Part shown: positions 16,475 to 52,000 of the stretch, piece after piece | Layout: each line of letters starts with the position of its first letter | Numbering within the stretch: position 1 is the first letter of the stretch | Source: Deltaproteobacteria bacterium | GTDB taxonomy: Bacteria; Desulfobacterota; Binatia; Bin18 | Assembly: GCA_016874775.1 (NCBI GenBank) | Contig: VGTJ01000002.1 | Location: 8,700 to 72,699 of the forward strand | Direction: 5' to 3' | Length of the DNA stretch: 64,000 nt | The notes under the pieces: generated by a model | What the model was told of the DNA's origin: nothing | Seen by the model: the letters and a program-made list of their open reading frames with translations, nothing else | Databases searched by the model: none | Translations under genes and position numbers: made by a program

Positions 16475-18670
16475 TCAATGTATGAAACTGGTTCGTAACC
16501 CACGAGGGAACACCACCACGACAGTACAAGGGACTTGATTGACGATTTGCTCGGTTCCTTGACTCAATATCGTTCCGGCGCGGCCCGAGCGACTCTCTAC
16601 CCCCAAGACAACCAGGTCATAACTACCACTGCGAGCTTCCCGGAGAATCTCCTCAGTCGGGCGCGCCCCCTCAATCACTTTAGCTGCCAAGCGTAGTTCA
16701 GGTTTCACTCCTGTGGGGCGCATCTCCCACAGCATGGTGTCAGCCATCATTTTCAGGACATTTTCCTCAAGTCCGTCTTGTCTTCGGCGAAACCAGCGAA
16801 ATCGCTGCGGTTCTGGGGACGGCAAGACATGCAACAACGTCACTTGCGCGCCGACGTCTTCGGCATACATAGCAGCGAATTCGACCGCAAGCTGTGAATA
16901 GACGTCGTCAGCCGTAGGCACAAGAATATGCTCGTAGCGTGGCTTTTCATCTCGTGCTTTAACAATAGCAACATGCGTTGGTGGGTCTTTTAAAATCTCG
17001 CCAAGAAACTCTCCCCCTAGCGGATTCTGATATCCAGACGCTCCCAACAGGATCAAGTCGTATCCACGCTGAGCCTCACGTCGGACCAGTTCCCCTTCTC
17101 GCATGCCATCCGCCGAAATGACACGTTTCTCAATCGTCACGCCAAAATCCTGAGCTATGCGTTGCAACGCAAAGAGCGGCTCTCCTTCAACAGACGGGGC
17201 CCTCTCTCGCCACCATCGTCGCAGGACGCCAAAGCTCTGCGACGGATCTTTTCCGACGAACAAGGTTGTGATTCGCGCTTCGGCATTCGTTGCCAGCGGT
17301 GCAGCCATACGCATGGCGGTCTGGGCATTGGGTCCACCGGCTGCTGGAAGCAGCACGCGAAGCGTACGCTTGTTAAAAATTCCCCGTTGGACCGTCGTGA
17401 GTCCCAGCCGTTCTTGTTCTTCACTGGAGAGAGGGATGTGTTGCAGTGCCCATTGCAACAAAGGCGGAGCCATAAACGACGTCACCATCGCCATCAACAC
17501 AAGGCTGCTATAGACTTCTGGTCCAAGAATTCCCGCAGTCAGCCCAATCAACGCCACAATGAGTTCCATACCTCCGCGTGCATTCATGCCAATGCCGATC
17601 GAGAATGACTCCCACCACGGCAGGCGTCCTAACAACCCACCGAGGGTACAACCGATTAATTTCCCGGCGCAGGCAACTACAATAACGGCAACAATCAGGC
17701 CCCAATCGCTTAAGAGCGTGAGGTTCACCCGTAACCCGACAAAGGCAAAAAAGACCGGCGTAAATGCGCCATGTACGACACCAACTAACTTCTCCAGAGC
17801 ATTGGCACGTACACGCGGAGATTGCGCCAACATCACGCCAGCAACAAAAGCGCCAAAAACCGCATGGATGCCGATGGCTTCGGTAATTGCTGAACAGATC
17901 AACGTAACCACCAACACCGCAGTGATATGGCCTTCCTCGACGAGTACCCGTTCATCAACCCACCGCATCAGGCGACGGACAAGGTGTACCCCAAACACAA
18001 GCGCCACAAGCACAAAAACTGCAGTACTCCCAACGGCAACAGCCACATCGCGAAAATCGAGAACACCTTTCGTGGTCATGCCAATCAGAGTTGACAAGAT
18101 GAGCCATCCAGCGATGTCGTCAACGATGGCCGATCCCATAATAATCGCGCCGATATTGCGGCGCAGCATATTGAGGTCCATGAGAATCTTGGCAATCACC
18201 GGTACGGCAGAGATTGCCATCGCCGTTCCCATGAATAGATGAAAAACCACTCGCTGCTCTGGACGCGCAACCAGGCGGTCGGGGATCATGGTTCCGAGAA
18301 TGTAACCAAGAGTGAAAGGCAGAAGAATACCGAAGAGTGAGGCAAGTGCTGCTGGTCGGCCAAGTTTGCGTAGAATGGTGATATCGGTTTCAAGTCCAGT
18401 CAGCAGCAGCAGGAAAATCATGCCCAGCCAGGAGATCAATTCGAGCAGTTGATATTGCAACGCATCACGGGGAAAGAGCGCGAGAGAAACCTCGGGGAGC
18501 AGCCACCCCAACAAGGAAGGGCCAAGAACGATCCCAGCCAATAACTCACCAAAGACGGGTGGCTGGCCATAGCGCTTCATCATCTCACCGAACAAACGAG
18601 CGCTAGCCAACAATACAGCGAACTGCACAAGGAACAGAAAGATCTGATGCGCACTAATCGGAGCAATCAT
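16475..18670 (-). CDS. CPA2-family monovalent cation:proton antiporter (KefB/NhaP-like) fused to two C-terminal universal-stress-protein (USP) domains
   Basis: The N-terminal ~400 aa are polytopic membrane, with GELLAGIVLGPSLLG as the CPA2 signature. The C-terminal ~300 aa contain two USP-like alpha/beta units (VLLPAAGGPNA..., ILVPTADD...VVLGVESRSG). Confidence 0.8.
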   Translation of the reverse strand: MIAPISAHQIFLFLVQFAVLLASARLFGEMMKRYGQPPVFGELLAGIVLGPSLLGWLLPEVSLALFPRDALQYQLLELISWLGMIFLLLLTGLETDITILRKLGRPAALASLFGILLPFTLGYILGTMIPDRLVARPEQRVVFHLFMGTAMAISAVPVIAKILMDLNMLRRNIGAIIMGSAIVDDIAGWLILSTLIGMTTKGVLDFRDVAVAVGSTAVFVLVALVFGVHLVRRLMRWVDERVLVEEGHITAVLVVTLICSAITEAIGIHAVFGAFVAGVMLAQSPRVRANALEKLVGVVHGAFTPVFFAFVGLRVNLTLLSDWGLIVAVIVVACAGKLIGCTLGGLLGRLPWWESFSIGIGMNARGGMELIVALIGLTAGILGPEVYSSLVLMAMVTSFMAPPLLQWALQHIPLSSEEQERLGLTTVQRGIFNKRTLRVLLPAAGGPNAQTAMRMAAPLATNAEARITTLFVGKDPSQSFGVLRRWWRERAPSVEGEPLFALQRIAQDFGVTIEKRVISADGMREGELVRREAQRGYDLILLGASGYQNPLGGEFLGEILKDPPTHVAIVKARDEKPRYEHILVPTADDVYSQLAVEFAAMYAEDVGAQVTLLHVLPSPEPQRFRWFRRRQDGLEENVLKMMADTMLWEMRPTGVKPELRLAAKVIEGARPTEEILREARSGSYDLVVLGVESRSGRAGTILSQGTEQIVNQVPCTVVVVFPRGLRTSFIH

Positions 18671-18813
18671 GCTAGAGCGATTCCCACCTCGCCCTCCACC
18701 TTACACGGATGGGATACGCAATCAAAAGCCCCGTCATAAATTGTCTTGTCACATTCCGGCGGGTCACATCTGTCCCATGATTCACATCGTGGGCTGAAAT
18801 ATATCGTCATGCT

Positions 18814-19085
18814 CCACGGTTAACACCGTGGGCTATAATCTGCCGCCTCTCCGAGGCTCATGAAGAAGTGACAATTCACCAACGAGCCCCGTTAGGGGCG
18901 ACATAATGCAGCCCATAGCGTGAGCTATGGGGAATCGGCAAATGACACGATCGTCATTCTCGCCAACGCCCCCACGGTTAACACCGTGGGCTGTATAATG
19001 TCGCCCTTCCAGGGCTCAACGAACCTCGCTAGGGGTGACACAATACAGCCCACAGCGTGAGCTGTGGGTAACTGTGGGGAACCGT
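18814..19085 (+). repeat. two tandem copies (~157 bp each) of a hairpin-rich intergenic element, REP-like or a candidate structured RNA
   Basis: Copy 1 spans 18814-18970 and copy 2 spans 18971-19085. Each starts with the perfect palindrome CCACGGTTAACACCGTGG. Three further hairpins follow in each copy. Their stems differ between copies by compensatory changes: GCCTC/GAGGC versus GCCCT/AGGGC, and CCCATAGC-GTGA-GCTATGGG versus CCCACAGC-GTGA-GCTGTGGG. The GTGA loop is a GNRA tetraloop on the plus strand. Confidence 0.6.
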
Positions 19086-19089
19086 GAGA

Positions 19090-20223
19090 TTATTTCCCAG
19101 CCCGCACCGGTGCCGATGCGTTGACATCCACCGCAGTGCGACGTGGTTGCGGCGATGGTTTCCAACTCTTAATTTCTGGCCCGACTTCTTTGGCGAACAA
19201 CTTCATGCAGGCTTCAACTTGGTCGTACGGAATACTCTGGTAGCTGAAAGCACCGTTAACTTCAAAGTCACCAATCAGTTCACGGCGCTTGCGCAGCTTG
19301 GCAATAATCATGTCCGGGGTGCCCCACAGGTTGGCACTGAGAAAATCTTCAACTACTGCGTCTTGCCCTGCAGCCTTCATTGCCTCTGACGCTTTGGCAT
19401 AATGTTGGTATGAATTGCCAGTACCAGAGAAATGGTCACCGAGCATTTCGTAATGTTCCATGACACTGAAGTAGTAGCCAACGATCTTTTCGCGCGCGAC
19501 TTCTTCAGCTTTCTTCTTATCTGTGTAACAGGAGACGAAATCGGCAATGTGAATCGGTGGTGCTTCCTCACCATTATTCTTCTGGCGATATTCTTCGCGA
19601 TACGCCCAGATGACGTCCGCGACTTTTTCCCACGACATCTGCGAAAACAACATCGCGCCAAGACCGAGTGACGCCGCAACCGAGAATGACTCAGGCGACA
19701 TGCACACCATGTAACGACGACCTTTGAAGCTCTTGATCGGGCGTGGGCGCACTTCAATGCGGCTCTGGGGATAGTATTTGCCGTTCCCTTCAACAAAGCC
19801 AGTTTCCAAGCCTTTCACGATCATCTCAGAGGCCTCGTTAAAACGATCACGGGCTTCGGACATCTCGACACCCATGCCTCGATACTCACGACGGGCGAGG
19901 CCGCGCCCCAATCCCAGAACAGCACGACCATCAGATAGATGATCCAACAAAACCATTTTCTCGACCACGCGCATTGGATTGTTCCACGGCACGATAATGG
20001 CACCAGTCGCCAGTTCCATGCGCTCGGTCCGTGCCGCGATGTAGCTCAGATACTGCATGTTGTCCGGGCAAATTGAGTAATCAAAGAAGTGATGTTCCAC
20101 TGGCCACAGAATGTCGTAGCCCCAGCCTTCTGCTTCAATCGCTAGACGCAGCTCGTGCTTATACATCTCGCGGTCGGAGTAATCCTTGTGATTCTGGATA
20201 ACCATCTGAATGCCAACTCTCAT
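19090..20223 (-). CDS. LLM-class (luciferase-like) flavin-dependent oxidoreductase
   Basis: MRVGIQMVIQNHKDYSDREMYKHELRLAIEAEGWGYDILWPVEHHF is the typical bacterial luciferase-like monooxygenase TIM-barrel N-terminus. Confidence 0.8.
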   Translation of the reverse strand: MRVGIQMVIQNHKDYSDREMYKHELRLAIEAEGWGYDILWPVEHHFFDYSICPDNMQYLSYIAARTERMELATGAIIVPWNNPMRVVEKMVLLDHLSDGRAVLGLGRGLARREYRGMGVEMSEARDRFNEASEMIVKGLETGFVEGNGKYYPQSRIEVRPRPIKSFKGRRYMVCMSPESFSVAASLGLGAMLFSQMSWEKVADVIWAYREEYRQKNNGEEAPPIHIADFVSCYTDKKKAEEVAREKIVGYYFSVMEHYEMLGDHFSGTGNSYQHYAKASEAMKAAGQDAVVEDFLSANLWGTPDMIIAKLRKRRELIGDFEVNGAFSYQSIPYDQVEACMKLFAKEVGPEIKSWKPSPQPRRTAVDVNASAPVRAGK

Positions 20224-43200: not shown

Positions 43201-44280
43201 AAGGCTGCGGTTGTCACTCCTGGTGCATGTCGGTCACTCACCGAAGGCTGTACCATTTGTCATGAGAACTGCCCGACCGGCGCGATCCGTATCTCGCCTG
43301 TGCCGATCGTCAGAAAATCTGAACGACCGGATATTGACCCCAACAGCGAAAGTCACAATGTTCCGGGCATCTTTTTGGGCGGAGAAATTCTGGGCAACGC
43401 TCTCATCAAAAAGGTCGTCAATCAGGGCGGACAAATTGTTCGTTACATCGATACTCGTAAACCGCGGATTCCTGAAGCCCAGTACGACGTTATCATCGTC
43501 GGTGCTGGTCCTTGTGGACTCGCTGCCGGTCTCGAAGCCAAACAACGTGGTCTTCGGTACGTGGTGCTTGAACGCGAGAGTTTGGCGAATACGATCCAGA
43601 ACTACCCACGAGATAAAGCCGTGCTCGCCGAACCAGTGCAGATGGCAGTCTACGGCTTGTTACCGATGAAAGATGCAACCAAGGAAGACCTCGTCGCACT
43701 GTGGGAAGACATTGTCCGCAAGGAAAGCTTGCACGTGAATACCCACGAAGAGGTCAGCGAAGTCAAGAAGAACGGCAACGTGATAACCGTCACCACGAAT
43801 AAAGGCACCTATCAGACCGGGTATGTGATTCTCGCCTTAGGTGCGCGGGGCAACCCTCGCAAACTCGGTGCAGCGGGTGAGGATCTTCCTAAAGTATCGT
43901 ATAACCTCAACGACCCTGCAGAATGGCAAGGGAAGCACGTGCTGGCCGTCGGTGGCGGTGACAGCGCCATTGAGGCGGCAGTAGCGATCTCCAAACAGCC
44001 AGGGGCCACGGCGACAATCTCGTATAGAAGCGGGGCTTTCTCGCGCGCGGCAGCACGAAACGTCGAAGCCATTAAAGAACAAGAAAAAGCCGGAAAACTG
44101 AAAGTGTTATTGAATTCTAACGTCACAAAAATCGAAGAGAAACGGGTCTCAATCAAAGCAGGGAACGAAGTCCACGAACTCGACAATGACGCCGTGTTTG
44201 TCCTCATCGGTGCTGATCCACCAAAGGCCTGGCTGGAAAAAATGGGGATAAAATACGTGATTGTTGAGAAAACGATCTAA
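40288..44280 (+). CDS. 1330-aa multidomain fusion protein: three FHA domains, TM helix, periplasmic ~10-haem cytochrome c, TM helix, 2x[4Fe-4S] ferredoxin, FAD/NAD(P)-binding pyridine-nucleotide oxidoreductase
   Basis: The three FHA domains are ILGRSSTCTVVL...SRRHSSI...NGTFVN, ISIGRATTCDIAV...SRVHATI...SVNGVYL and YTIGRGEQATFRL...SRIHCAI...SLNGTFIG. Pro-rich linkers join them (PPVSPTPPVSPTPP). TM1 is WATFALMLVAALSSYGFAVLG. Nine CxxCH motifs plus one Cx4CH (CAATDCH) follow. TM2 is GLSLNGVLLSMLGLVGATGAYIYA. Then come CLPCGTCYDSCP plus C...CTICHENCP, then YDVIIVGAGPCGLAAG and VLAVGGGDSAIEAA Rossmann motifs. The reading frame is uninterrupted throughout. Confidence 0.8.
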   Translation: MIKLTVQTGTETGKEISPSSDPIILGRSSTCTVVLHDAAVSRRHSSIERRGNDYILTDLQSGNGTFVNSQGTRITEPYTLKDGDEILIGKSRIRVDLSLQSQESPGPRNTASAGQPAAATDESTRIAQAPPPVSPTPPVSPTPPTATDGLNAVHQPDVPIVVTIVGGPNRGMVYSPAREVISIGRATTCDIAVNDSTASRVHATIKREAGKYRLYDNNSVNGVYLSTPQTRVYQTDLADGDTFFVGQNQFRVEIHLTHPPVSLEVGSEEAMRITGTVGGKNFTFTLSALSGGTRATQIVPTDEATRVAMAQSSTPPLDEATRFVRQPAVPPKQPTSAAPAGPKISLRVIEGADQGTVFTPLPGVERYTIGRGEQATFRLQDRGASRIHCAIEISPAGFFLVDDGSLNGTFIGQNTERITRVALKGGEEVLLADTRFKVEITLPEGAAAAAEGADEKTSYVPYHAPTPPAATPDAPVPVVVEQPATENVRSRSAAFKDRLAIIARQSGVTLRPFTVPGTPRQWATFALMLVAALSSYGFAVLGRSDYFAGGPISESHAKLENGTFEQRCTACHPTWGLQPVNATCAATDCHADVLKVRDDRRDDCVSCHTEHRGRTFAIKGGKEQCWSCHEAGMNVRAYASRPMGVYHTQVFSVAEQLIPQPGKVPTQGIQPAALSTARETWQKDFSAQPTGLKYAHALHSAQVLEKNKKQEQCLDCHVKLLDGQFAPFPTHAQCIDCHKEVANVDPQIAKKSASKDCELCHTQADGGVTHVARNINYVVFQHNDHGQMRCVQCHAVVTSETEYRPVLRSSAAYPMPMDACYSCHEEKKVTIACLDCHRQHHSYPSTTELAWGWFGGLSLNGVLLSMLGLVGATGAYIYADMRLARRWLASLETATPPPANEAAPAAAGHDGHEGEAAPAAAAPAAAIPPPTPSSEGALYPYPTIDSDACLPCGTCYDSCPGKVLALSPATHKAAVVTPGACRSLTEGCTICHENCPTGAIRISPVPIVRKSERPDIDPNSESHNVPGIFLGGEILGNALIKKVVNQGGQIVRYIDTRKPRIPEAQYDVIIVGAGPCGLAAGLEAKQRGLRYVVLERESLANTIQNYPRDKAVLAEPVQMAVYGLLPMKDATKEDLVALWEDIVRKESLHVNTHEEVSEVKKNGNVITVTTNKGTYQTGYVILALGARGNPRKLGAAGEDLPKVSYNLNDPAEWQGKHVLAVGGGDSAIEAAVAISKQPGATATISYRSGAFSRAAARNVEAIKEQEKAGKLKVLLNSNVTKIEEKRVSIKAGNEVHELDNDAVFVLIGADPPKAWLEKMGIKYVIVEKTI

Positions 44281-44309
44281 GGCCTCGCCACCTCCCCCGT
44301 ACAAATGCC

Positions 44310-44337
44310 GTAGGGACGTCGCAGACGACGCCCCTAC
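44310..44337 (+). terminator. GC-rich hairpin downstream of the fusion gene, possible terminator lacking a U-tract
   Basis: GTAGGGACGTCG-caga-CGACGCCCCTAC begins 30 nt after the stop at 44280. The stem is 12 bp with one mismatch. Confidence 0.35.
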
Positions 44338-44421
44338 AGTACCCACCGTCTGACAATAAAATACTTCTAGAATAGGCCGATAAAGTAGGGTACAGTAATT
44401 TGCAGTACAAAGAGGTATCGT

Positions 44422-44919
44422 ATGAACCTGTACCGGATCGCCACTCTTGTTATCGTGCCGTGGTTGGGCCTTTTGACAGCGACATCCTCTTCGTTCGGGG
44501 AAACATCACAGCCTGCTACGGTTATTGCAGCCTCACCAGAACAGGCCCAACAACAAGCTCCATTATTCACCTTTTTGCAGGGCTATTTCTCGTCGTTAGC
44601 CCAAGGCGAGGTGAATAAACTGGCCCAGTACCACCCCACCCTGACGACAGAGCAACTTTCTACTTTGCAAGGCTATTTTTCTCACACGATTCGTGACTTA
44701 CACATCGATGTGCGCAATGTACAAGTCCAGCTCACGGCGAATACCGCTACGGTCTCGTTTTTCCGCACCGATCGTTTTATTGATCGCCTCACAGAACGAC
44801 AGATCGAAAAGAGTATTCAATTGTCGACTGTTCTTGAATATGGTGCAAATGGGTGGCGGCTCGGCGGCCTTGATCAGGTCGCGTTTGCCTTAGTGCCGCG
44901 CACCACTCAGGCGGGGTAG
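44422..44919 (+). CDS. small secreted NTF2-like/SnoaL-like protein, paralogous to the C-terminal domain of the adjacent Ser/Thr kinase
   Basis: The signal peptide is MNLYRIATLVIVPWLGLLTATSS. The core LQGYFSHTIRDLHIDVRNVQVQLTANTATVSFFRTDRFIDR resembles the kinase C-terminus LEGYKSYSVSFRDVSVRNEGNRAVVRFIRVDTIDGK. Confidence 0.5.
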   Translation: MNLYRIATLVIVPWLGLLTATSSSFGETSQPATVIAASPEQAQQQAPLFTFLQGYFSSLAQGEVNKLAQYHPTLTTEQLSTLQGYFSHTIRDLHIDVRNVQVQLTANTATVSFFRTDRFIDRLTERQIEKSIQLSTVLEYGANGWRLGGLDQVAFALVPRTTQAG

Positions 44920-44929
44920 ACAAAAAAGC

Positions 44930-47900
44930 CTATCGCGTGCGAGCAACACGCCCGCCATTACTTTTTTCTAACTTGACTTCTTTCGGTGGCAGGGCAAGAG
45001 TCTTGCCATCTATCGTGTCAACTCGGATGAAGCGGACCACCGCACGGTTCCCTTCGTTGCGGACGCTCACATCCCGGAACGATACACTGTAGCTTTTGTA
45101 CCCCTCCAGGATCCCACGAAGTCTGGTCGCGTCCTGTGCTGAGATTTCGCCGAGCTGCACCAGGGCATCCGTATTTTTGTTTTCCCATGCCGGGCGATAG
45201 ATGGTTTCCAGCCAGTTCATGGCTTCTCTATCACTGGGAGGTCCGGCTTCCTTTGCCCGTTCAGTTTCTTCGCGTTGGACCTTCGCCAATCGTTCCTCTT
45301 CCGCCAGTCTCGCGGCTTCTGCTTTCCGCCGCTCTTCCTCTGCAGCTCTCTGGCGAACGGCCTCTTCTGCTCTGCGCCGTTCCTCTTCCGCTCGTGCAGT
45401 TTTCTCTTGTTCAGCTCTCAAGCGCTCAGCTTCTGCCTTTGCTGCCTTCTCTTGTTCCGCTTTCAACCGATCGGCCTCCGCCTTTGCCGCTTTCTCTTGA
45501 TCCGCCTTGAGCTTTTCAGCTTTGGCTTGTTCGGCTTTCACACGATCGGCTTCCGCTTTTGCCGCCTTTTCTTGTTCAGCTTTGAGTCGTTCCGCCTCGG
45601 CCCGTAGGGTCTTTTCTTGTTCAGCTTTTAGGCGGTCAGCTTCCGCTTTTGCCGCTTTCTCTTGGTCCGCCTTAAGCTTCTCAGCTTTGGCTTGTTCGGC
45701 TTTCACACGATCGGCTTCCGCTTTTGCTGCTTCCGCCTTTCGCCGATCTTCCTCTGCTTTCTGAGCTTTGGCTACTTCTTCAGCTTTGCGGCGATCGTCT
45801 TCTGCCTTTTGGGATTTAGCTACCTCCTCGGCCTTACGACGTTCTTCCTCTGCTTTCAATTGGTCGGCTTTGGCTTGTTCAGCTTTCAGACGCGCCTCTT
45901 CTTCTTGTGCTGCATTCGCTTGGGCGGCCTTTCGGGCTTCTTCCTCCTGCGCCTGCTGAGTCGACGGTTTCTGCGGGTTAACTGACTCTCCTCCTCGGCT
46001 GAAATAAAACCCTAAGGCAGCAACAACGACAAACGCGGCGATACCTGCGACAACTGGCGAAGATTGACGCGCAGGAGAAGGGGCATCCACGGGAACGGGA
46101 CGACTGGTACGCTCGCCTTCCGTTGTTGGCCCCTGATCAAGCAGCGGATGGACTTCTGTTTCTTGCTGCTGCAATGCGGAGAGAAGTGCAGAGGCTTCAT
46201 TATAGCTCGCGAGCGCTTGTGGGTAGCGTTTTTGCTGAAACGACTGATCGCCTGTAGTGATAAACTTCTCAGCTGACTTTTTCTGTTTCCCTTTCGCAGT
46301 CTGCGTTTGTTGTCGCAGCTCGTACGCGCGAGTTCTTGCACCCTCGGCTTCATGCTTTTGCCATGCAACCTCAGACTCTTGGCGAATCTGTTTCCAGCGC
46401 GAAACATTACGGTCAAACTGGTCTCGTGCCGCATCAAACTTTTCGTCGGCAAGCGCCTGCTCTGCCTTATGCAACTCAGACATCGCCTCGACATGTTGAC
46501 CAGGAAGAAATTCTTCACTCCTGACCGCCTGGGCCTCTGCCTGGGCTGCAACGGCCCGTTTCTGCGACTCTGTCGCGGCTTGCTTCGCTCGGGCAAGCCG
46601 GGCAATTCCCAATGCCTGACCAAACAACTCTCCTGCTTGCGCTGAGAGCGTAACCGATTCCTCGAATTGCTTTGCAGCTAACGCAGCCTCCGCCTGCTCT
46701 CGCACTTCCTGTGCTTGTCGATAGAGGTCTGCAGCATATTGTGGAGCATGCACGGCGTCAGCTTCGCGTTGACGTCCTTTCGCTTCTTGATTAGCCAAGA
46801 GGGCACGTTGCTGCTGCTCCTCTACTTCAGCTTCAGCTTGCGCGTACTCATAGATCTGTGCAGCCTGCGCATAATGCGCGCGGGCTTGCTCATACGCCTG
46901 TGCCTGCCACGCTTTCTCACCTTCGGTCTCGGAGGTTTGCGCTTCTTTCCACCGGGCTGCGGCAAAACGAGGAGCTAGGGTGCTGGCCGCTTGTTTTGCC
47001 TGTGCGGCTTGCTGCCGCACAACATCGGCCTCTTCCTGAGCAATTTGTTGCTGCACCGCCTGAACGAGCTTGATAAACTGTTGTTGCGCTTGTTCGTAAT
47101 TCTGGCGGGCTGTAGTGAAGTCATCTTTTTTTTGCGCAGCCTGGCCACGTTCGAAAAGTCCTCGAACCTGAGCAAACTCGCGCGGGAAACGTTGCTCGGC
47201 AGAACTCTGGGTTGCGGCAGATCCTGCTTCTTCTGCACGTTGCAGAGCAGCAAGCATTTCCTGCTTAGCGTACTCATGCTGTGCCGTACCCTTCGCCTGC
47301 ACAAAGAGTTCTTCTGCGTGGCGATACTCACGTGTAGCTTGACTAAATTTTTGCTGTCGTTGGTGGCGACTCGCTTCATCGAGAGCCGCCGCCGCCTGGT
47401 TAAAATCCGTGGCCGCATAGCGTGGGGCATCAACTTCTTCGGCTTGCTTCTTCGCAGTACCAGCCTGTTTTTCTGCCGCAGCGGTTTCTTGTCGGAGTCG
47501 TTCCTGTTCTCCTGCTGTCGCTGCCGTCGTGTATAACTGCGCCGTCTGTGTGTACTGCGCCAGTGCGTTTTCGTAGTCTTGGTCTGAGAACGCTCGCTCG
47601 GCATCGGCTTCTTGCTTCTGCGCGGCCTCCCATTGTGCGTTGGCCCATTGTTTCAGCTCACTCGCGTTCTCTTTCGCCTGCAGCATCTGTTGGCGCGCCG
47701 CTGCAGCGTCTTCGCGTGCAGCCTCAACGTCTGCGTCACGACGAAGACGCAACAGTTGCTGACGAGCCTGTTCGTATAAATCACTCGCTTGGGAGAAGTC
47801 TTGTTGTGTTTCCGCTTGTTGTCCCCGGACAACTACCTGTTGAGCACGAGCAAACTCTTGTGCGAAGCGTGAGTGGACTGCCGCTTCAGTGGCTGCAACC

Positions 47901-50900
47901 TGAGCAGCTTCCAATCGCTGACGCAGGGCAATGACAGCCTGCCGCGCTCTTTCTTGTTGTGCATCGTGCGCAGCTTGTGACCACAGTGACCGTGCTTGTG
48001 CAAACGCTTGGCTGGCATCGTTCCAGTGCTGGGCGTGCATCTGTTGTTCGGCCTGTTGAGCAGTCTGCGCCCCTTGCTGAAAGAGCGCCGTAGCGTACCT
48101 TTCCGCCTCAGCTCGTTGCGCTTCAGCGCGAGCTTCTTCCGCTTGTTGCTGCGCATCGAGTGCGCGGCGTCGCTGCCGCTCGATCTCAGCTGCGTGTCGA
48201 GCCTTCTCGGCCTCTGTTCGCGCTTCTATGTAACGTTGCGTGACGCGATCATACGCTTCTGCTGCTTTCGCATACTGCTGGGCTTCCCAGGCGGCGTTCG
48301 CTTCAGCTTCTGTTCGTTCCGCGTCAGCCCATTTCGCTCCGCGCCATTCAGTGAGCCCCGCCAATCCATTCCTAGATTCAGCCGCACGTTTCCGTGCGGC
48401 TTCCGCCTTTTCCTTCTCAGCTTGCCGAAAGGCTTCGCCCCCAAGACGCTCCCAGAGTTGACGTGCTTGCTGATAGGCCTCGCTTGCCTGAGAGAAATTC
48501 TCTTGCGTTTCCGCTTGGGCCGCTTGCTCAACAAGGTGTGAGGCTTTAGCAAAATCCGTGGCAAAGCGTTGTGCAGCCCCGGACTTCTCGGCAATCTGCC
48601 GTGCTTCCGTTGTACGTTGTCGAGCGCTTACGGCTTCCTGTCTGTGACGTTCCCGTTGCGCATCGTCAGCAGCTTTCGCCAGCAGCTCTGCCGCGCGCCA
48701 ATAGCGTTGAATCGCCGCCCGCAATTCTTTGGTGCGAATCTGTTTTTCAGCGTCGCTCAGTGCAGCAAGCCCATCGCGCCACAACTCAGCAGCGTAACGC
48801 GTTGCTTCGCGTTGTTCAGCGCGCGTTTTTGCAGACTGCGCTTGCTGCTGTGCATCACGGACTTCCTGTTGTAATTGTTCTTGCTCAGCGTTAGTGCGTG
48901 CTTGGGTATAAGCCTTCGCAGCCTGAGTGTAGAGATCCGTAGCACTGCGATATTCTTGCTTCTGGTAGGCCTGGTCCGCACGCTGCACACGTTCACGCGC
49001 CTGCGCCCAGTTCTCCTTAGCCCAGGCCTGCAGGGGCTCACTCCCCTGCACCACTTCTGCCATTTTCTGCCGCGCGGTATCAGCCTGCTCACGGGCAGCA
49101 AGCACGGCACATTCACGCGCGAGTTGTTGAAAGCGCTGGGCGGCCTCTGTATAGCGGTGGCGAGATTCGCGATATTGCTCTCGCTTTTCGTGCTCTTGTC
49201 CCTCGGCAACCAAGCGTTGAATCTGTTGGTAGGAGGAAGCCGCGCGTTCCTTTGCTTCCGCTTGGTCAGCTTGCACTTGGGCTTGTTGCAGCTGTTGCCG
49301 GACTGCAGCAGTAGCCTGTCGATCTTGTTCGGTAGCGGCTTCTTGGGTGGCTTGCTCATAGCGATCGCGCGCCTGCAGATACGCCTGCTTGGCCTTGTCA
49401 TACGCCTTCGCTTGCAACTGCGTGTCACCTTGCTTCTGGAACAAGGTAGCTTGCTGATACAACGGAGAGGCAAGATCGCGCGCCTGCGCGTCTTCAGCTT
49501 GACGCTGTGCTTCTTTGGCTTGTTGTTGGACGGCGACGGTTTCTAACCGTTGCTGTTCATTGACTGCCTCTTGTTGCGCACGCTCATATTTTTGCGCAGC
49601 AGCAAGATATAACTCACGCGCTTGGGTAAATTCTTCATGCGTGATTGCTGCACTTGCCCGTTGTTCTTGATCTGCAGCTTCACGAAAGAGGTTAGCGGCA
49701 AGTCGTGTCGCACCTTGCTCTTCCGCCGCCGCTTTTGCAGCGGTCGCCCGCGCATGCGCTTTCTCTGCTTCGTCTTTTAGGGTCTCACGGTACGCTTGCT
49801 CGCGAGCATCAGCGAAGGAACGTGCAGCTTCACTATAGCCGTGCGCCGCGTGCTGAAAATCACCTTTCTCAAGAAATTCATCAGCTTGCGATTCCAGGGT
49901 GAGGGCACGCGCGTATCGCGTGCGCGCGTGCCCTCGTGCGCCGTAGTGCTCAGCCTCTTCCTTGGCGGCGGCCATGTTACCCCGTGCCTGCTCGGCTTTC
50001 CGTTTGGCTGCTGCGGTTTGCGCTTCTGCGGCTGCCTGGGTGAAGATCTGGATGGCCTCATCGAATGCTTGTTGAGCTGCGGTAAAGTCCTTGTCCCGTA
50101 AGCTCTTCGCACCGTGTCCTTCCGCCGTCATTCCTTGCTGAAGCAAGGTGGCAGCCCATTCTGACGCACCGTCACGAGTCGCGCGTTCGCGTGCCTCACG
50201 CGCTTGCGTCTGGAGCGACAAAATACGACGACGCTCCCGTTCTTCTTCAAGTTTGCGGATCTGGTCTTCGATATCGTCGTCAGCCTGTGCCTCTTGCTTT
50301 TTCTCTTCTTTTTTTCCCAGCCCAGAGAGAATCAGCGTACCGGTGTCTTCTCCATCAGCGCTCAAATTCCGACAGCTCTCTAGCGCTTGCAGTAGTTCCC
50401 GCATGCTGTGGTAGCGATGGGCACGATTTTTCGCGATCGCCCGCGTCAACAGGTCAGCAAACGCGGCAGGCGTTGGGCGATCAAAGTGCGGCTCGTTCTC
50501 TTTGGTATCGTACAAGACCTTGCCCAGCACGGCATGTTCATCGAGCCCGCCGAAGAATTGCCTACCGGTGCACATCTCATACATCACCATACCCAGCGAA
50601 TAGACATCCGCTCCACCGTCAAGCTGCTCATGGCGCAGTTGCTCAGGCGAGGCATATTTCAAGGTCCCGATCACCATGCCGGTCTTGGTGGAATCGCCAT
50701 CGCCCAGTTCCTTGGCGATGCCAAAGTCCATCACCACCACGCGTGACGAATGGTCCTCAATCATGATGTTGGCGGGTTTGATGTCACGATGGATGATCGG
50801 CGGGGTATGGCCGTGGGCATAGCCTAGGGCTTCAGCGACCTGGCGCGAGATACGCAGAATTTCCGGCAGCGGCAACGGGCCTTTTTCACGGATGTATTTT

Positions 50901-51199
50901 CCAAGCGTCACCCCCTCGATGTACTCCATGACAAAGTAGTAGAGGTTCAGAGTCTCATCGCGCTCGATATCAAGGACACGAACGATATTGGGATGGTTAA
51001 GCCGAGCCATGACGCGCGCTTCCCGATAGAAGCGGTTCACCATGTCTTCGTTTTCCATCAAATACGCAGGCAGGACCTTGAGGGCAGAGATGGTGTCGAG
51101 GGCGGTGTGGCGAACTTTATACACCAGCCCCATGCCACCTTGACCCAGTTGGCCAACAACCTCGTACTTGCGGGAAATCACCATCGGCTTAGTTGCCAT
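44930..51199 (-). CDS. giant (2089-aa) Hanks-type Ser/Thr protein kinase: N-terminal kinase domain, a ~1100-aa degenerate helical repeat region, TM helix, a ~300-aa K/E/A-rich TolA-like spacer, C-terminal NTF2-like domain
   Basis: The kinase domain has GQGGMGLVYKV, the K in ALKVL, HRDIKPANIMI, DFGIAKE and GTLKYASPEQ. Repeated W..A..W...Y..A..Y and RFA.EFA blocks follow. The TM helix is VVAGIAAFVVVAALGFYF. Then come KAEQEKAAKAEADRLKAEQ repeats, and then the NTF2-like domain. Confidence 0.9.
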   Translation of the reverse strand: MATKPMVISRKYEVVGQLGQGGMGLVYKVRHTALDTISALKVLPAYLMENEDMVNRFYREARVMARLNHPNIVRVLDIERDETLNLYYFVMEYIEGVTLGKYIREKGPLPLPEILRISRQVAEALGYAHGHTPPIIHRDIKPANIMIEDHSSRVVVMDFGIAKELGDGDSTKTGMVIGTLKYASPEQLRHEQLDGGADVYSLGMVMYEMCTGRQFFGGLDEHAVLGKVLYDTKENEPHFDRPTPAAFADLLTRAIAKNRAHRYHSMRELLQALESCRNLSADGEDTGTLILSGLGKKEEKKQEAQADDDIEDQIRKLEEERERRRILSLQTQAREARERATRDGASEWAATLLQQGMTAEGHGAKSLRDKDFTAAQQAFDEAIQIFTQAAAEAQTAAAKRKAEQARGNMAAAKEEAEHYGARGHARTRYARALTLESQADEFLEKGDFQHAAHGYSEAARSFADAREQAYRETLKDEAEKAHARATAAKAAAEEQGATRLAANLFREAADQEQRASAAITHEEFTQARELYLAAAQKYERAQQEAVNEQQRLETVAVQQQAKEAQRQAEDAQARDLASPLYQQATLFQKQGDTQLQAKAYDKAKQAYLQARDRYEQATQEAATEQDRQATAAVRQQLQQAQVQADQAEAKERAASSYQQIQRLVAEGQEHEKREQYRESRHRYTEAAQRFQQLARECAVLAAREQADTARQKMAEVVQGSEPLQAWAKENWAQARERVQRADQAYQKQEYRSATDLYTQAAKAYTQARTNAEQEQLQQEVRDAQQQAQSAKTRAEQREATRYAAELWRDGLAALSDAEKQIRTKELRAAIQRYWRAAELLAKAADDAQRERHRQEAVSARQRTTEARQIAEKSGAAQRFATDFAKASHLVEQAAQAETQENFSQASEAYQQARQLWERLGGEAFRQAEKEKAEAARKRAAESRNGLAGLTEWRGAKWADAERTEAEANAAWEAQQYAKAAEAYDRVTQRYIEARTEAEKARHAAEIERQRRRALDAQQQAEEARAEAQRAEAERYATALFQQGAQTAQQAEQQMHAQHWNDASQAFAQARSLWSQAAHDAQQERARQAVIALRQRLEAAQVAATEAAVHSRFAQEFARAQQVVVRGQQAETQQDFSQASDLYEQARQQLLRLRRDADVEAAREDAAAARQQMLQAKENASELKQWANAQWEAAQKQEADAERAFSDQDYENALAQYTQTAQLYTTAATAGEQERLRQETAAAEKQAGTAKKQAEEVDAPRYAATDFNQAAAALDEASRHQRQQKFSQATREYRHAEELFVQAKGTAQHEYAKQEMLAALQRAEEAGSAATQSSAEQRFPREFAQVRGLFERGQAAQKKDDFTTARQNYEQAQQQFIKLVQAVQQQIAQEEADVVRQQAAQAKQAASTLAPRFAAARWKEAQTSETEGEKAWQAQAYEQARAHYAQAAQIYEYAQAEAEVEEQQQRALLANQEAKGRQREADAVHAPQYAADLYRQAQEVREQAEAALAAKQFEESVTLSAQAGELFGQALGIARLARAKQAATESQKRAVAAQAEAQAVRSEEFLPGQHVEAMSELHKAEQALADEKFDAARDQFDRNVSRWKQIRQESEVAWQKHEAEGARTRAYELRQQTQTAKGKQKKSAEKFITTGDQSFQQKRYPQALASYNEASALLSALQQQETEVHPLLDQGPTTEGERTSRPVPVDAPSPARQSSPVVAGIAAFVVVAALGFYFSRGGESVNPQKPSTQQAQEEEARKAAQANAAQEEEARLKAEQAKADQLKAEEERRKAEEVAKSQKAEDDRRKAEEVAKAQKAEEDRRKAEAAKAEADRVKAEQAKAEKLKADQEKAAKAEADRLKAEQEKTLRAEAERLKAEQEKAAKAEADRVKAEQAKAEKLKADQEKAAKAEADRLKAEQEKAAKAEAERLRAEQEKTARAEEERRRAEEAVRQRAAEEERRKAEAARLAEEERLAKVQREETERAKEAGPPSDREAMNWLETIYRPAWENKNTDALVQLGEISAQDATRLRGILEGYKSYSVSFRDVSVRNEGNRAVVRFIRVDTIDGKTLALPPKEVKLEKSNGGRVARTR
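45420..45770. repeat. near-identical in-frame tandem DNA repeats (165-bp period with ~82-bp sub-period) inside the kinase gene
   Basis: The unit starting TCAGCTTTGGCTTGTTCGGCTTTCACACGATCGGCTTCCGCTTTTGCCGC at 45516 recurs at 45681 with only 1-2 mismatches. The repeats encode the duplicated ...AKAEADRVKAEQAKAEKLKADQEKAAKAEADRLKAEQEK... segment. Confidence 0.7.
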
Positions 51200-51214
51200 G
51201 GGTGGACTTCCGAG

Positions 51215-52000
51215 TTAGCCAGCTACGGTTGGATCTTCAATGTACGACAGAATGATGATCGTACTGTTATCTCGGCCCCCACGTTCATTGGCGAGATTGA
51301 CCAGCGCATCACACGATTTTTCGAAATCTGGAGCGGTCTCGTTAATGATACGAAGCATGTCGCTATCTTCAACCACCCCATGAATCCCGTCACTACACAA
51401 GAGGTAAATATCTCCGGATTGGGGCCGTTCGAGCCGCACTGAAGGTTGGACAAGTGGACTCACCCCAACGGCTTGTGTCAACACATGACGGTGCGGAAAT
51501 GTCTTGACTTCTGTTGGTCCGATTTTGCCTTCACGGAGTAACTGCTGCACAAGCGAATGATCTTCCGTGAGGAGCTCAATCGTACCATCACGAACGCGAT
51601 AGACGCGAGAATCGCCAACATGACAAATCCCGGCAACGCTTTCGTGCTCATCAAACAAGACAGCAGCCACCGTTGTCCCCATGCCATTGAGGGCCGGGTC
51701 CTGCTGGCTCATCTCGAAAACTTTGTTATTTGCTCCCTGGATTGCGAGGAAAAGACGACGACCAGCGACCGACGACCAGCCATTCTCGGTTGTGATGGGC
51801 GTCAGATCTTCTCCCTCAGTTTCCTGGAGAACCCCATGCATCGTTTCTACAGCTAAGGCACTTGCGCGCTCTCCCCCGAGATGCCCCCCCATCCCATCCG
51901 CCACGATATAAAACGCCGCCTCGGGAAAGAATCCGGAGGAGTCCTCGTTTTTCACACGCACCTTACCCGTGTCGGTTTTAACTGCGCCACAGATGGACAC
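51215..52000 (-). CDS. PP2C-family Ser/Thr protein phosphatase
   Basis: It uses a GTG start with AAGGAG RBS. VKTDTGKVRVKNEDS...ADGMGGHLGGERAS is the PP2C metal-binding motif set. It ends 15 nt upstream of the kinase gene on the same strand, in the PstP-PknB-like arrangement. Confidence 0.85.
   Translation of the reverse strand: MSICGAVKTDTGKVRVKNEDSSGFFPEAAFYIVADGMGGHLGGERASALAVETMHGVLQETEGEDLTPITTENGWSSVAGRRLFLAIQGANNKVFEMSQQDPALNGMGTTVAAVLFDEHESVAGICHVGDSRVYRVRDGTIELLTEDHSLVQQLLREGKIGPTEVKTFPHRHVLTQAVGVSPLVQPSVRLERPQSGDIYLLCSDGIHGVVEDSDMLRIINETAPDFEKSCDALVNLANERGGRDNSTIIILSYIEDPTVAG

Follow-up and report, generated by a model that had tools for sequence, protein, structure and literature searches.

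Acido-Lenti-1 modules in a Binatia-related genome: a probable cluster of REP-type DNA repeats tied to an IS200-like Y1 transposase

An array of two-hairpin modules between two minus-strand genes

The window analysed here is a 64,000-nt stretch of contig VGTJ01000002.1 (positions 8,700 to 72,699 of the forward strand; assembly GCA_016874775.1) from a metagenome-assembled genome (MAG) labelled Deltaproteobacteria by NCBI. Within it, two minus-strand genes are separated by 419 nt (18671-19089), and this intergenic region holds five copies of a 46-nt two-hairpin module, which is the Rfam motif Acido-Lenti-1 (RF01687). We consider it very probable that this array is a cluster of non-autonomous DNA repeats of the repetitive extragenic palindrome (REP) type, resembling bacterial interspersed mosaic elements (BIMEs) and REPINs (REP doublets forming hairpins), and tied to an IS200-like Y1 (HUH) single-strand-DNA transposase encoded elsewhere. 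The genes and the parts of the array are as follows:

16475-18670, minus strand: downstream gene, Na+/H+ exchanger fused to Usp domains, 731 aa (Pfam Na_H_Exchanger 2.3e-60, Usp 9.9e-29)
18774-18807, plus strand: partial copy, head hairpin CCCATGAT-TCAC-ATCGTGGG with a GCT linker, without the second hairpin
18813-18858, plus strand: full copy 1, head TCCACGGT-TAAC-ACCGTGGG, linker CTATAATCTGCC, tail GCCTC-TCC-GAGGC
18885-18931, minus strand: full copy 2, read on the minus strand as CCCATAGC-TCAC-GCTATGGG GCTGCATTATGTC GCCCC-TAAC-GGGGC
18932-18970, no strand: 39-nt spacer separating the head ends of copies 2 and 3
18971-19016, plus strand: full copy 3, head CCCACGGT-TAAC-ACCGTGGG, tail GCCCT-TCC-AGGGC
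19022-19068, minus strand: full copy 4, separated by 5 nt from copy 3, with which it converges
19062-19086, no strand: 10-nt mini-tandem CTGTGGGGAA, 2.5 units, at the outer edge of copy 4 (Tandem Repeats Finder)
19090-20223, minus strand: upstream gene, luciferase-like flavin monooxygenase, 377 aa (Pfam Bac_luciferase 1.5e-54; NCBI MBM4254376.1)

The copies, spanning 18774-19068, amount to four and a half modules in alternating orientation, in the order + (head hairpin only), +, -, +, -. A full module runs from an 8-bp head hairpin with the 4-nt loop T-N-A-C through a 12-nt linker with a conserved GGCT to a 5-bp tail hairpin, the loop of which is 3-4 nt long; the array ends 21 nt from the monooxygenase stop codon at copy 4 and 103 nt from the exchanger start codon at the partial copy. 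Copies 1 and 2 are convergent across a 26-nt gap, and the spacer behind them carries a small palindrome of its own, AATGAC-ACGATC-GTCATT, at 18941-18958. The 10-nt mini-tandem resembles a scar left by slippage.

An Rfam search, proposed as a check in a preliminary description of this locus made from the sequence alone, placed three copies above the curated RF01687 gathering score of 37 bits (40.2, 43.0, and 50.8 bits for copies 1, 2, and 3) and two more below it (29.1 bits for copy 4 and 23.3 bits for the partial copy). With R1, a covariance model that we built from 90 copies, the same five score 57.2, 52.9, 57.2, 39.8 (E=1.5e-9), and 25.1 bits (E=1.9e-5), respectively, and with filters off nothing else in the 64 kb is found; the partial copy is also member D1 of a direct-repeat family. 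The model alignments show the RF01687 consensus features T9, A11, C12, G20-C21-T22, and C32-G33, save that A33 replaces G33 in copy 4, the tail of which has one C-A mismatch in the motif sense—a T-G pair on the plus strand. Copies 3 and 4 together form a long inverted repeat (18973-19066) that gives sub-threshold Rfam matches to mir-3160 and let-7, which we reject as artefacts of that repeat.

The preliminary description had divided the site into two tandem units of four hairpins each. The duplication is real, and all four hairpins per unit occur as quoted, though each unit proves to be a convergent doublet of the one 46-nt module, and the fifth, head-only copy falls outside the extent given there. 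Tandem Repeats Finder did not call the ~150-nt repeat; in the pairwise alignment used in its place, the two units are 79% identical with one 21-nt indel, the repeated bodies being 18813-18931 and 18971-19068 with a start-to-start spacing of 158 nt in the left half and 137 nt in the right half. The 18-mer CCACGGTTAACACCGTGG occurs exactly twice in 64 kb (0.01 expected); it had been called a perfect palindrome and is actually a 7-8 bp stem with a TAAC loop. The compensatory changes that had been reported between the units stand, with one pair beyond those listed (G18886-C18899 to A-T): of 26 stem pairs, 20 are unchanged, four have changed on both sides and still pair, two have gained or lost a G-T through a change on one side, and no pair is disrupted. 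Divergence is alike in stem (10/52) and non-stem (10/50) positions, and random placement of the ten stem substitutions preserves all pairs in just 3 of 300,000 trials. These paired changes reflect selection for hairpin formation.

A GNRA loop and a U-G pair had further been taken to make sense for the plus-strand transcript only. The GTGA loops, however, sit in the two minus-oriented copies, the plus-oriented copies 1 and 3 showing TAAC; across the family the loop is T-N-A-C, with the complement GTGA, GTAA, or GTCA, and is thus not consistently GNRA. Both strands of the array fold equally well (z-scores -6.9 and -7.1), and since plus and minus copies lie at one locus, no single transcript has all copies in one sense. 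A sigma-70 scan found no promoter-like site inside the array, its one match (19116-19089, minus strand) overlapping the end of the upstream gene; it did not support the TATAAT strings of the linkers, which we had considered as promoters. A single terminator-like call falls in the array, on one of its own hairpins.

Copies of the module in other genomes and at the orthologous site

Acido-Lenti-1 was described by Weinberg et al. (2010; Genome Biol 11:R31, PMC2864571) from 89 sequences of Acidobacteria and Lentisphaerae, was rated a probable non-coding RNA, and was reported to lie sometimes near group II introns; Rfam files it as "Gene; sRNA" (small RNA) of unknown function, and we found no function for it in the literature searched. 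The window copies share its 46-nt two-hairpin consensus. The RF01687 seed alignment itself contains tandem multi-copy arrays, some in alternating orientations (for example, NZ_ABCK01000016 15912-16336), and about 60 copies from Lentisphaera araneosa. The host differs, in that the monooxygenase homologues of the window MAG have Candidatus Binatia as their nearest named relatives. Because the seed also includes sequences from Rhodopirellula baltica and Geobacter uraniireducens, two species that appear in the list of GTAG REP families of Di Nocera et al. (2013; PMC3733652), some members of Acido-Lenti-1 may already be in the literature as REPs, named differently.

A scan of a genome collection with a degenerate head pattern returned at least 120 matches, the window's own genome not being among the matches listed; nearly all of those listed are MAGs of Acidobacteriota, Planctomycetota, and Verrucomicrobiota, with up to five separate loci in a single MAG among them. 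The head CCCACGGCT[C/T/G]ACGCCGTGGGCT is near-identical across these phyla, including at stem positions left free in the pattern, and the tail hairpin varies freely in sequence with its pairing kept. Among 101 model hits, 98.2% of stem cells pair and 12 of the 13 pairs show two-sided changes (120 cells), against one-sided, G-U-type changes in seven cells only; none of 500 shuffles reached the observed covariation values. Read antisense, the head is an nTAG followed by a GC-rich palindrome, with nTAG in ~77% and GTAG in 44% of copies of the family.

The arrangement of copies is equally regular. Fifty-eight of 65 neighbouring pairs elsewhere are inverted, 53 of the 65 in "-+" order, and 49 of these 53 are separated by 80-131 nt that include a long tail-tail hairpin—the counterpart of the window's 39-nt spacer, which in these 49 composites holds a long hairpin of two tail modules. 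The resulting ~200-nt composite comprises minus-strand tail and head, ~20 nt, a long perfect hairpin of two tails, another ~20 nt, and plus-strand head and tail. A tandem of mixed-type "+-" doublets similar to that of the window occurs in locus L085, in another MAG labelled Deltaproteobacteria, beside a transposase gene. Copies are extragenic, the open frame covering a copy having a median length of 420 nt, compared with 1212 nt at random positions. No target-site duplication was found at the ends of 24 composites, of which 19 lack a flanking direct repeat, the same as in a shifted control.

Two sets of matches call for separate comment. A scan of viral contigs gave 28 matches, with the full two-hairpin module in L024 and L032 only. 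Some 24 phage contigs (L005-L031, IMG/VR; e.g., L009:6540-6572), mostly from sample 3300045988, carry instead the near-identical sequence CCCACCGCTCACGCAGTGGGCTTCCTTGGCGCGGG, which mimics the head hairpin (7/8 pairs), has no second hairpin, and is covered by open frames 300-560 nt long; either a conserved stretch of coding sequence or some other element may account for it, and we rejected all viral matches other than L024 and L032 as a different, recurring phage sequence. Perfect motif doublets were also seen in L145 and L150, on contigs binned as "uncultured Klebsiella sp." and "uncultured Bifidobacterium sp."; these contigs are probably mis-binned, since the motif is otherwise found in soil and freshwater phyla.

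At the orthologous site, the monooxygenase-exchanger gene pair is kept in loci with a 97%, 85%, or 76% identical monooxygenase, with intergenic lengths of 196, 180, and at most 316 nt, respectively, compared with 419 nt in the window. With the covariance model and filters off, we found no motif copies in 44.6 kb from five loci of four monooxygenase homologues. In the closest of these, L233 (97% identity), the ~110 nt before the exchanger start align with the window and the repeat array is missing; the site is thus polymorphic. Judged from these alignments, the site pattern is that of a putatively mobile or expendable repeat, not that of a gene-specific regulator.

This bears on two explanations in which the array serves its neighbours. 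One holds that the palindromic heads are operator sites binding a dimeric transcription factor that controls the Na+/H+ exchanger-Usp gene, in keeping with the position of the array upstream of the exchanger start codon, the palindromic form of the heads, and the TATAAT-like strings in the linkers. We regard it as extremely improbable: the stems covary rather than keep their sequence, the motif stands beside unrelated genes in at least four phyla among the matches listed, the orthologous promoter region is present in L233, L236, and L237 without the motif, and the linkers do not score as sigma-70 promoters.

The other takes the array for a transcript-end element of the monooxygenase gene, a bidirectional terminator or 3' stabiliser, the host function of which would explain its retention. 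The array does start 21 nt past the monooxygenase stop codon, one of its hairpins was called terminator-like, and L233 has, by eye, a terminator-like stem followed by T6 (L233:5232-5251; GGCAAGG..CCTTGCCTTTTTT) at the equivalent place after the monooxygenase gene, which the window lacks. E. coli REPs, moreover, stabilise upstream mRNA. On the other side, the L233 stem escaped the terminator scan, having a loop above the length that the scan allows, and five modules exceed what a terminator needs. As the explanation of the array, this is very unlikely; such a function would in any case be compatible with a REP-type cluster and no competitor to it.

Y1 transposase genes bracketed by inverted copies

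The association with a transposase was first seen in L085, where the gap between inverted copies holds a 150-aa open reading frame (ORF) that matches Pfam Y1_Tnp at 89 bits and the NCBIfam IS200/IS605 model at 70.4 bits (cut-off 55). A 48%-identical homologue in L105 is bracketed in the same way. The family comprises 4,486 homologues at E<=1e-10, nearly all of the best 120 of which are 150 aa long, and is marked by the motifs DHVH, WQ, and YIxxQEEHH; the nearest solved structures are the TnpA proteins of ISDra2 and IS608. A class 3 TnpAY1 (Planctomycetes and Acidobacteria; CnGA-footed) was considered as the partner and rejected, as the protein has DHVH/WQ/YIxxQ..HH and not NHVH/W[TA]/YV..EQ.

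For a non-circular test, 80 metagenome loci were fetched by the protein alone. These loci contain 268 R1 hits. Sequence-only nhmmer found fewer flanking copies than the covariance model, and a strict structural head scan with a shuffle control, reaching 130 nt upstream, was used in its place; it detected 186 heads, compared with six in shuffled sequence. Of 77 loci, 48 have a minus-oriented head upstream of the Y1 gene, and 55 of 77 have a plus-oriented one downstream. Correctly oriented heads flank the gene on both sides in 40 of 74 loci and on at least one side in 59 of 74; wrongly oriented flanks occur in seven loci upstream and one downstream. Gaps between head and gene concentrate around 40-50 nt on the upstream side and 45-56 nt on the downstream side, and tail-only modules adjoin the Y1 ORF on both sides. 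The common ~200-nt composites share this layout, except that a short loop stands where the gene would be, and are therefore its gene-deleted form—that is, the gene-bearing Y1 unit minus the gene.

Some loci depart from the rule. L165:1528-1950 and L194:1608-1938 have six and five same-orientation copies, respectively, in tandem upstream of the Y1 gene with a 71-72-nt period, and L194 has an extra minus-oriented copy downstream, where plus-oriented copies are the rule. In L177:1888-2523, the flanks are reversed (plus upstream, minus downstream), and both are partial matches, which suggests a divergent subfamily or a rearrangement. The plus-oriented window copies (18813-19016), for their part, close the head stem with T-A and not the usual C-G (GGTTAACACC), a variant seen elsewhere only in L085 and in the transposase-flanking L183, L187, and L220, bar a few low-quality matches of a loose scan; this hints at a subfamily matched to particular enzymes.

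With 46-nt terminal inverted repeats and no coding capacity, the common composites could also be taken for miniature inverted-repeat transposable elements (MITEs) moved by a DDE-type transposase, the 46-nt module being a double-stranded terminal inverted repeat. This we find highly improbable, as 19 of 24 composites lack a target-site duplication at their ends, just like the control, the gene found between such ends encodes a Y1 HUH enzyme and not a DDE enzyme, and covariation of the hairpins is unexpected for a double-stranded recognition site.

A further alternative follows the curated classification: the array would be structured non-coding RNA—tandem small RNAs or a structured untranslated-region element—with the hairpins acting in the transcript. 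It can point to an Rfam match above the gathering score, strong covariation in both helices, and the rating as probable RNA by Weinberg et al. (2010; PMC2864571). Non-Watson-Crick stem pairs in the Rfam orientation (A-C 23 vs G-T 10) add a weak lean, with more G-U on the antisense strand, which we did not use as evidence, the copies not being independent. Against it, adjacent copies alternate in the window and in ~90% of neighbouring pairs elsewhere, G-U-type one-sided changes fill few cells beside the compensatory ones (7 vs 120), the array has no promoter-like site and its sole terminator-like call is an array hairpin, the cluster is missing at the same site in a close relative, and the motif is positioned around a transposase gene. 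An RNA explanation is accordingly quite unlikely. The preliminary description had offered a plus-strand small RNA and a REP/BIME-like family as its two candidates; the first does not fit copies that alternate, strands that fold equally, rare G-U pairs, and a cluster missing in a close relative, and the evidence favours the second. Taken together, alternation, equal folding, Watson-Crick stems, extragenic placement, the lack of target duplication, the nTAG head, and the lack of a promoter-like site in the array point to a DNA-level element.

Mechanism and relation to known systems

If the window array is a REP-type cluster of this kind, the Y1 enzyme would recognise the head hairpin and its foot in single-stranded DNA, for example at the replication fork, and would cut and rejoin DNA at the head hairpin, the repeats being spread or maintained in trans. 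Selection would then preserve hairpin formation on both strands; a need for both strands to fold would explain the Watson-Crick compensation and the rarity of G-T pairs. To form the window array, convergent doublets may have inserted first, with tandem duplication or slippage then enlarging it locally, and the array would have no gene-specific role at this locus. Should the monooxygenase transcript read into the array, its stable stem-loops may serve, in the manner of E. coli REPs, as a barrier at the 3' end or as an attenuator.

Several observations weigh against this interpretation. High copy number is a hallmark of REPs, and there is one cluster in the 64-kb window and none in 44.6 kb of related loci. 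The Y1 transposase gene was not found in the 64-kb window, and the convergent "+-" doublets of the window are a minority arrangement, accounting for 5 of 65 neighbouring pairs, of which two are those of the window. The feet of the window copies (ATAG, GCAG, ACAG, ACAG, and TCAG) are not GT[AG]G. The partner enzyme has the IS200-type Y---Q--HH and not the Y---NP of REP-associated tyrosine transposases (RAYTs), and the L085 protein falls short of the NCBIfam REP_Tyr_transpos model (24.9 bits, cut-off 80). That the Y1 enzyme recognises and transposes the motif is, in addition, something we infer from sequence, and an RNA-level role may exist on top of the DNA role.

REPs are typified by a GTAG-type foot and a GC-rich palindrome (Nunvar 2010; Di Nocera 2013, PMC3733652). 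We compared the module with REP/RAYT (TnpA-REP) systems using the REPtrons of E. coli and Pseudomonas (Nunvar 2010; Bertels and Rainey 2011; Ton-Hoang 2012; Di Nocera 2013, PMC3733652). Like REPs, BIMEs, and REPINs, the modules are short extragenic palindromes with compensatory stem variation, lack target-site duplications, and have an nTAG foot in many family members. They occur in tandem clusters and in inverted doublets of two sequence subtypes, much as Y and Z REPs do in BIMEs—in the window, as two convergent doublets—and, in related loci only, bracket a cognate Y1 gene in inverted orientation as in a REPtron. They differ in having a second hairpin and a conserved linker, in the GT[AG]G foot, which is degenerate in the window copies, and in an associated enzyme that is IS200-like (Y---Q--HH) and not a class 2 RAYT (Y---NP). 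Copy number, moreover, appears modest, and the head CCCACGGCTNACGCCGTGGGCT is near-same across several phyla, whereas classical REPs are species-specific.

The resemblance to IS200/IS605 elements (IS608, ISDra2) lies in the closest structures, the NCBIfam assignment, end hairpins, and the lack of target-site duplication. In contrast, their end hairpins are direct and on one strand while the Acido-Lenti-1 flanks are inverted, there is no tnpB here and no tnpA in the window array, and derivatives without the gene are more numerous than the gene-bearing form among the loci sampled. With its ends inverted and gene-less derivatives predominant, the associated unit is thus not an IS200/IS605 element. 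As described by Di Nocera et al. (2013), TIRtrons, with their TIRYT genes and "double palindromic TIRs", have a similar layout: Y1 genes are bracketed by long inverted repeats with two palindromes each, dispersed copies are moderately abundant and form dimers or clusters, and Acidobacteria are among the hosts. The comparison rests on that description and on the proteins, and the TIRYT proteins in the alignment (e.g., Koribacter aba 1552) are class 2, with Y---NP.

The closest enzyme class is the TnpAY1 subclass 1.2 of Quentin, Siguier, Chandler and Fichant (2018; PMC6006769), which its authors describe as having neither REPs nor the usual IS200 end hairpins and as largely restricted to Cyanobacteria and Bacteroidetes. 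The proteins found here match its DH[IV]H, WQ, and YIxxQxEHH motifs and its length of ~148-150 aa, membership being judged by motifs alone; they differ in that their genes are motif-bracketed and come mainly from Acidobacteriota-type and related soil or freshwater contigs. In the literature searched, we found no report of a link between Acido-Lenti-1 and this transposase subclass reported to be REP-less. We lean toward the view that Acido-Lenti-1 is the long-missing repeat partner of the IS200-like TnpAY1 subclass 1.2, the two forming a distinct type of REPtron.

If so, the distinguishing features of this REPtron would be the two-hairpin module, the gene-less composites, and the near-invariant head, which would span Acidobacteriota, Planctomycetota, Verrucomicrobiota, and Binatia-like bacteria and thereby suggest frequent horizontal spread or else an interface between enzyme and DNA under unusual constraint. 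Such a system would be intermediate between true IS200 elements and domesticated RAYT/REP systems. Having been curated for 15 years as a small RNA, Acido-Lenti-1 probably needs re-annotation as a DNA repeat—the evidence here pointing to one tied to a transposase—which would end its reporting as a non-coding RNA gene in genome annotations. A repeat partner for a Y1 subclass described as repeat-less would also offer a concrete hairpin substrate for the biochemistry of the enzyme, and a hairpin near-identical across phyla would be a tractable case for the spread and persistence of REP-type systems. The window locus itself is ordinary, one more case of a catalogued motif where the site is not conserved; the value is in the family as a whole, where tying a catalogued "sRNA" to a transposase subclass thought to be repeat-less would be a modest, testable advance.

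Elsewhere in the window, a loose structural scan gave four weak "head" matches (25209, 45506, 45671, and 47526), which we rejected as unsupported by the covariance model. Two of these positions, 45506 and 45671, 165 nt apart, carry the near-repeat CTTRAGCTTYTCAGCTTTGGCTTG. GC content reaches its maximum for the window in the surrounding stretch at 44001-52000, where the AT skew is strongly negative (-0.19 to -0.23); this may be a repetitive protein gene.

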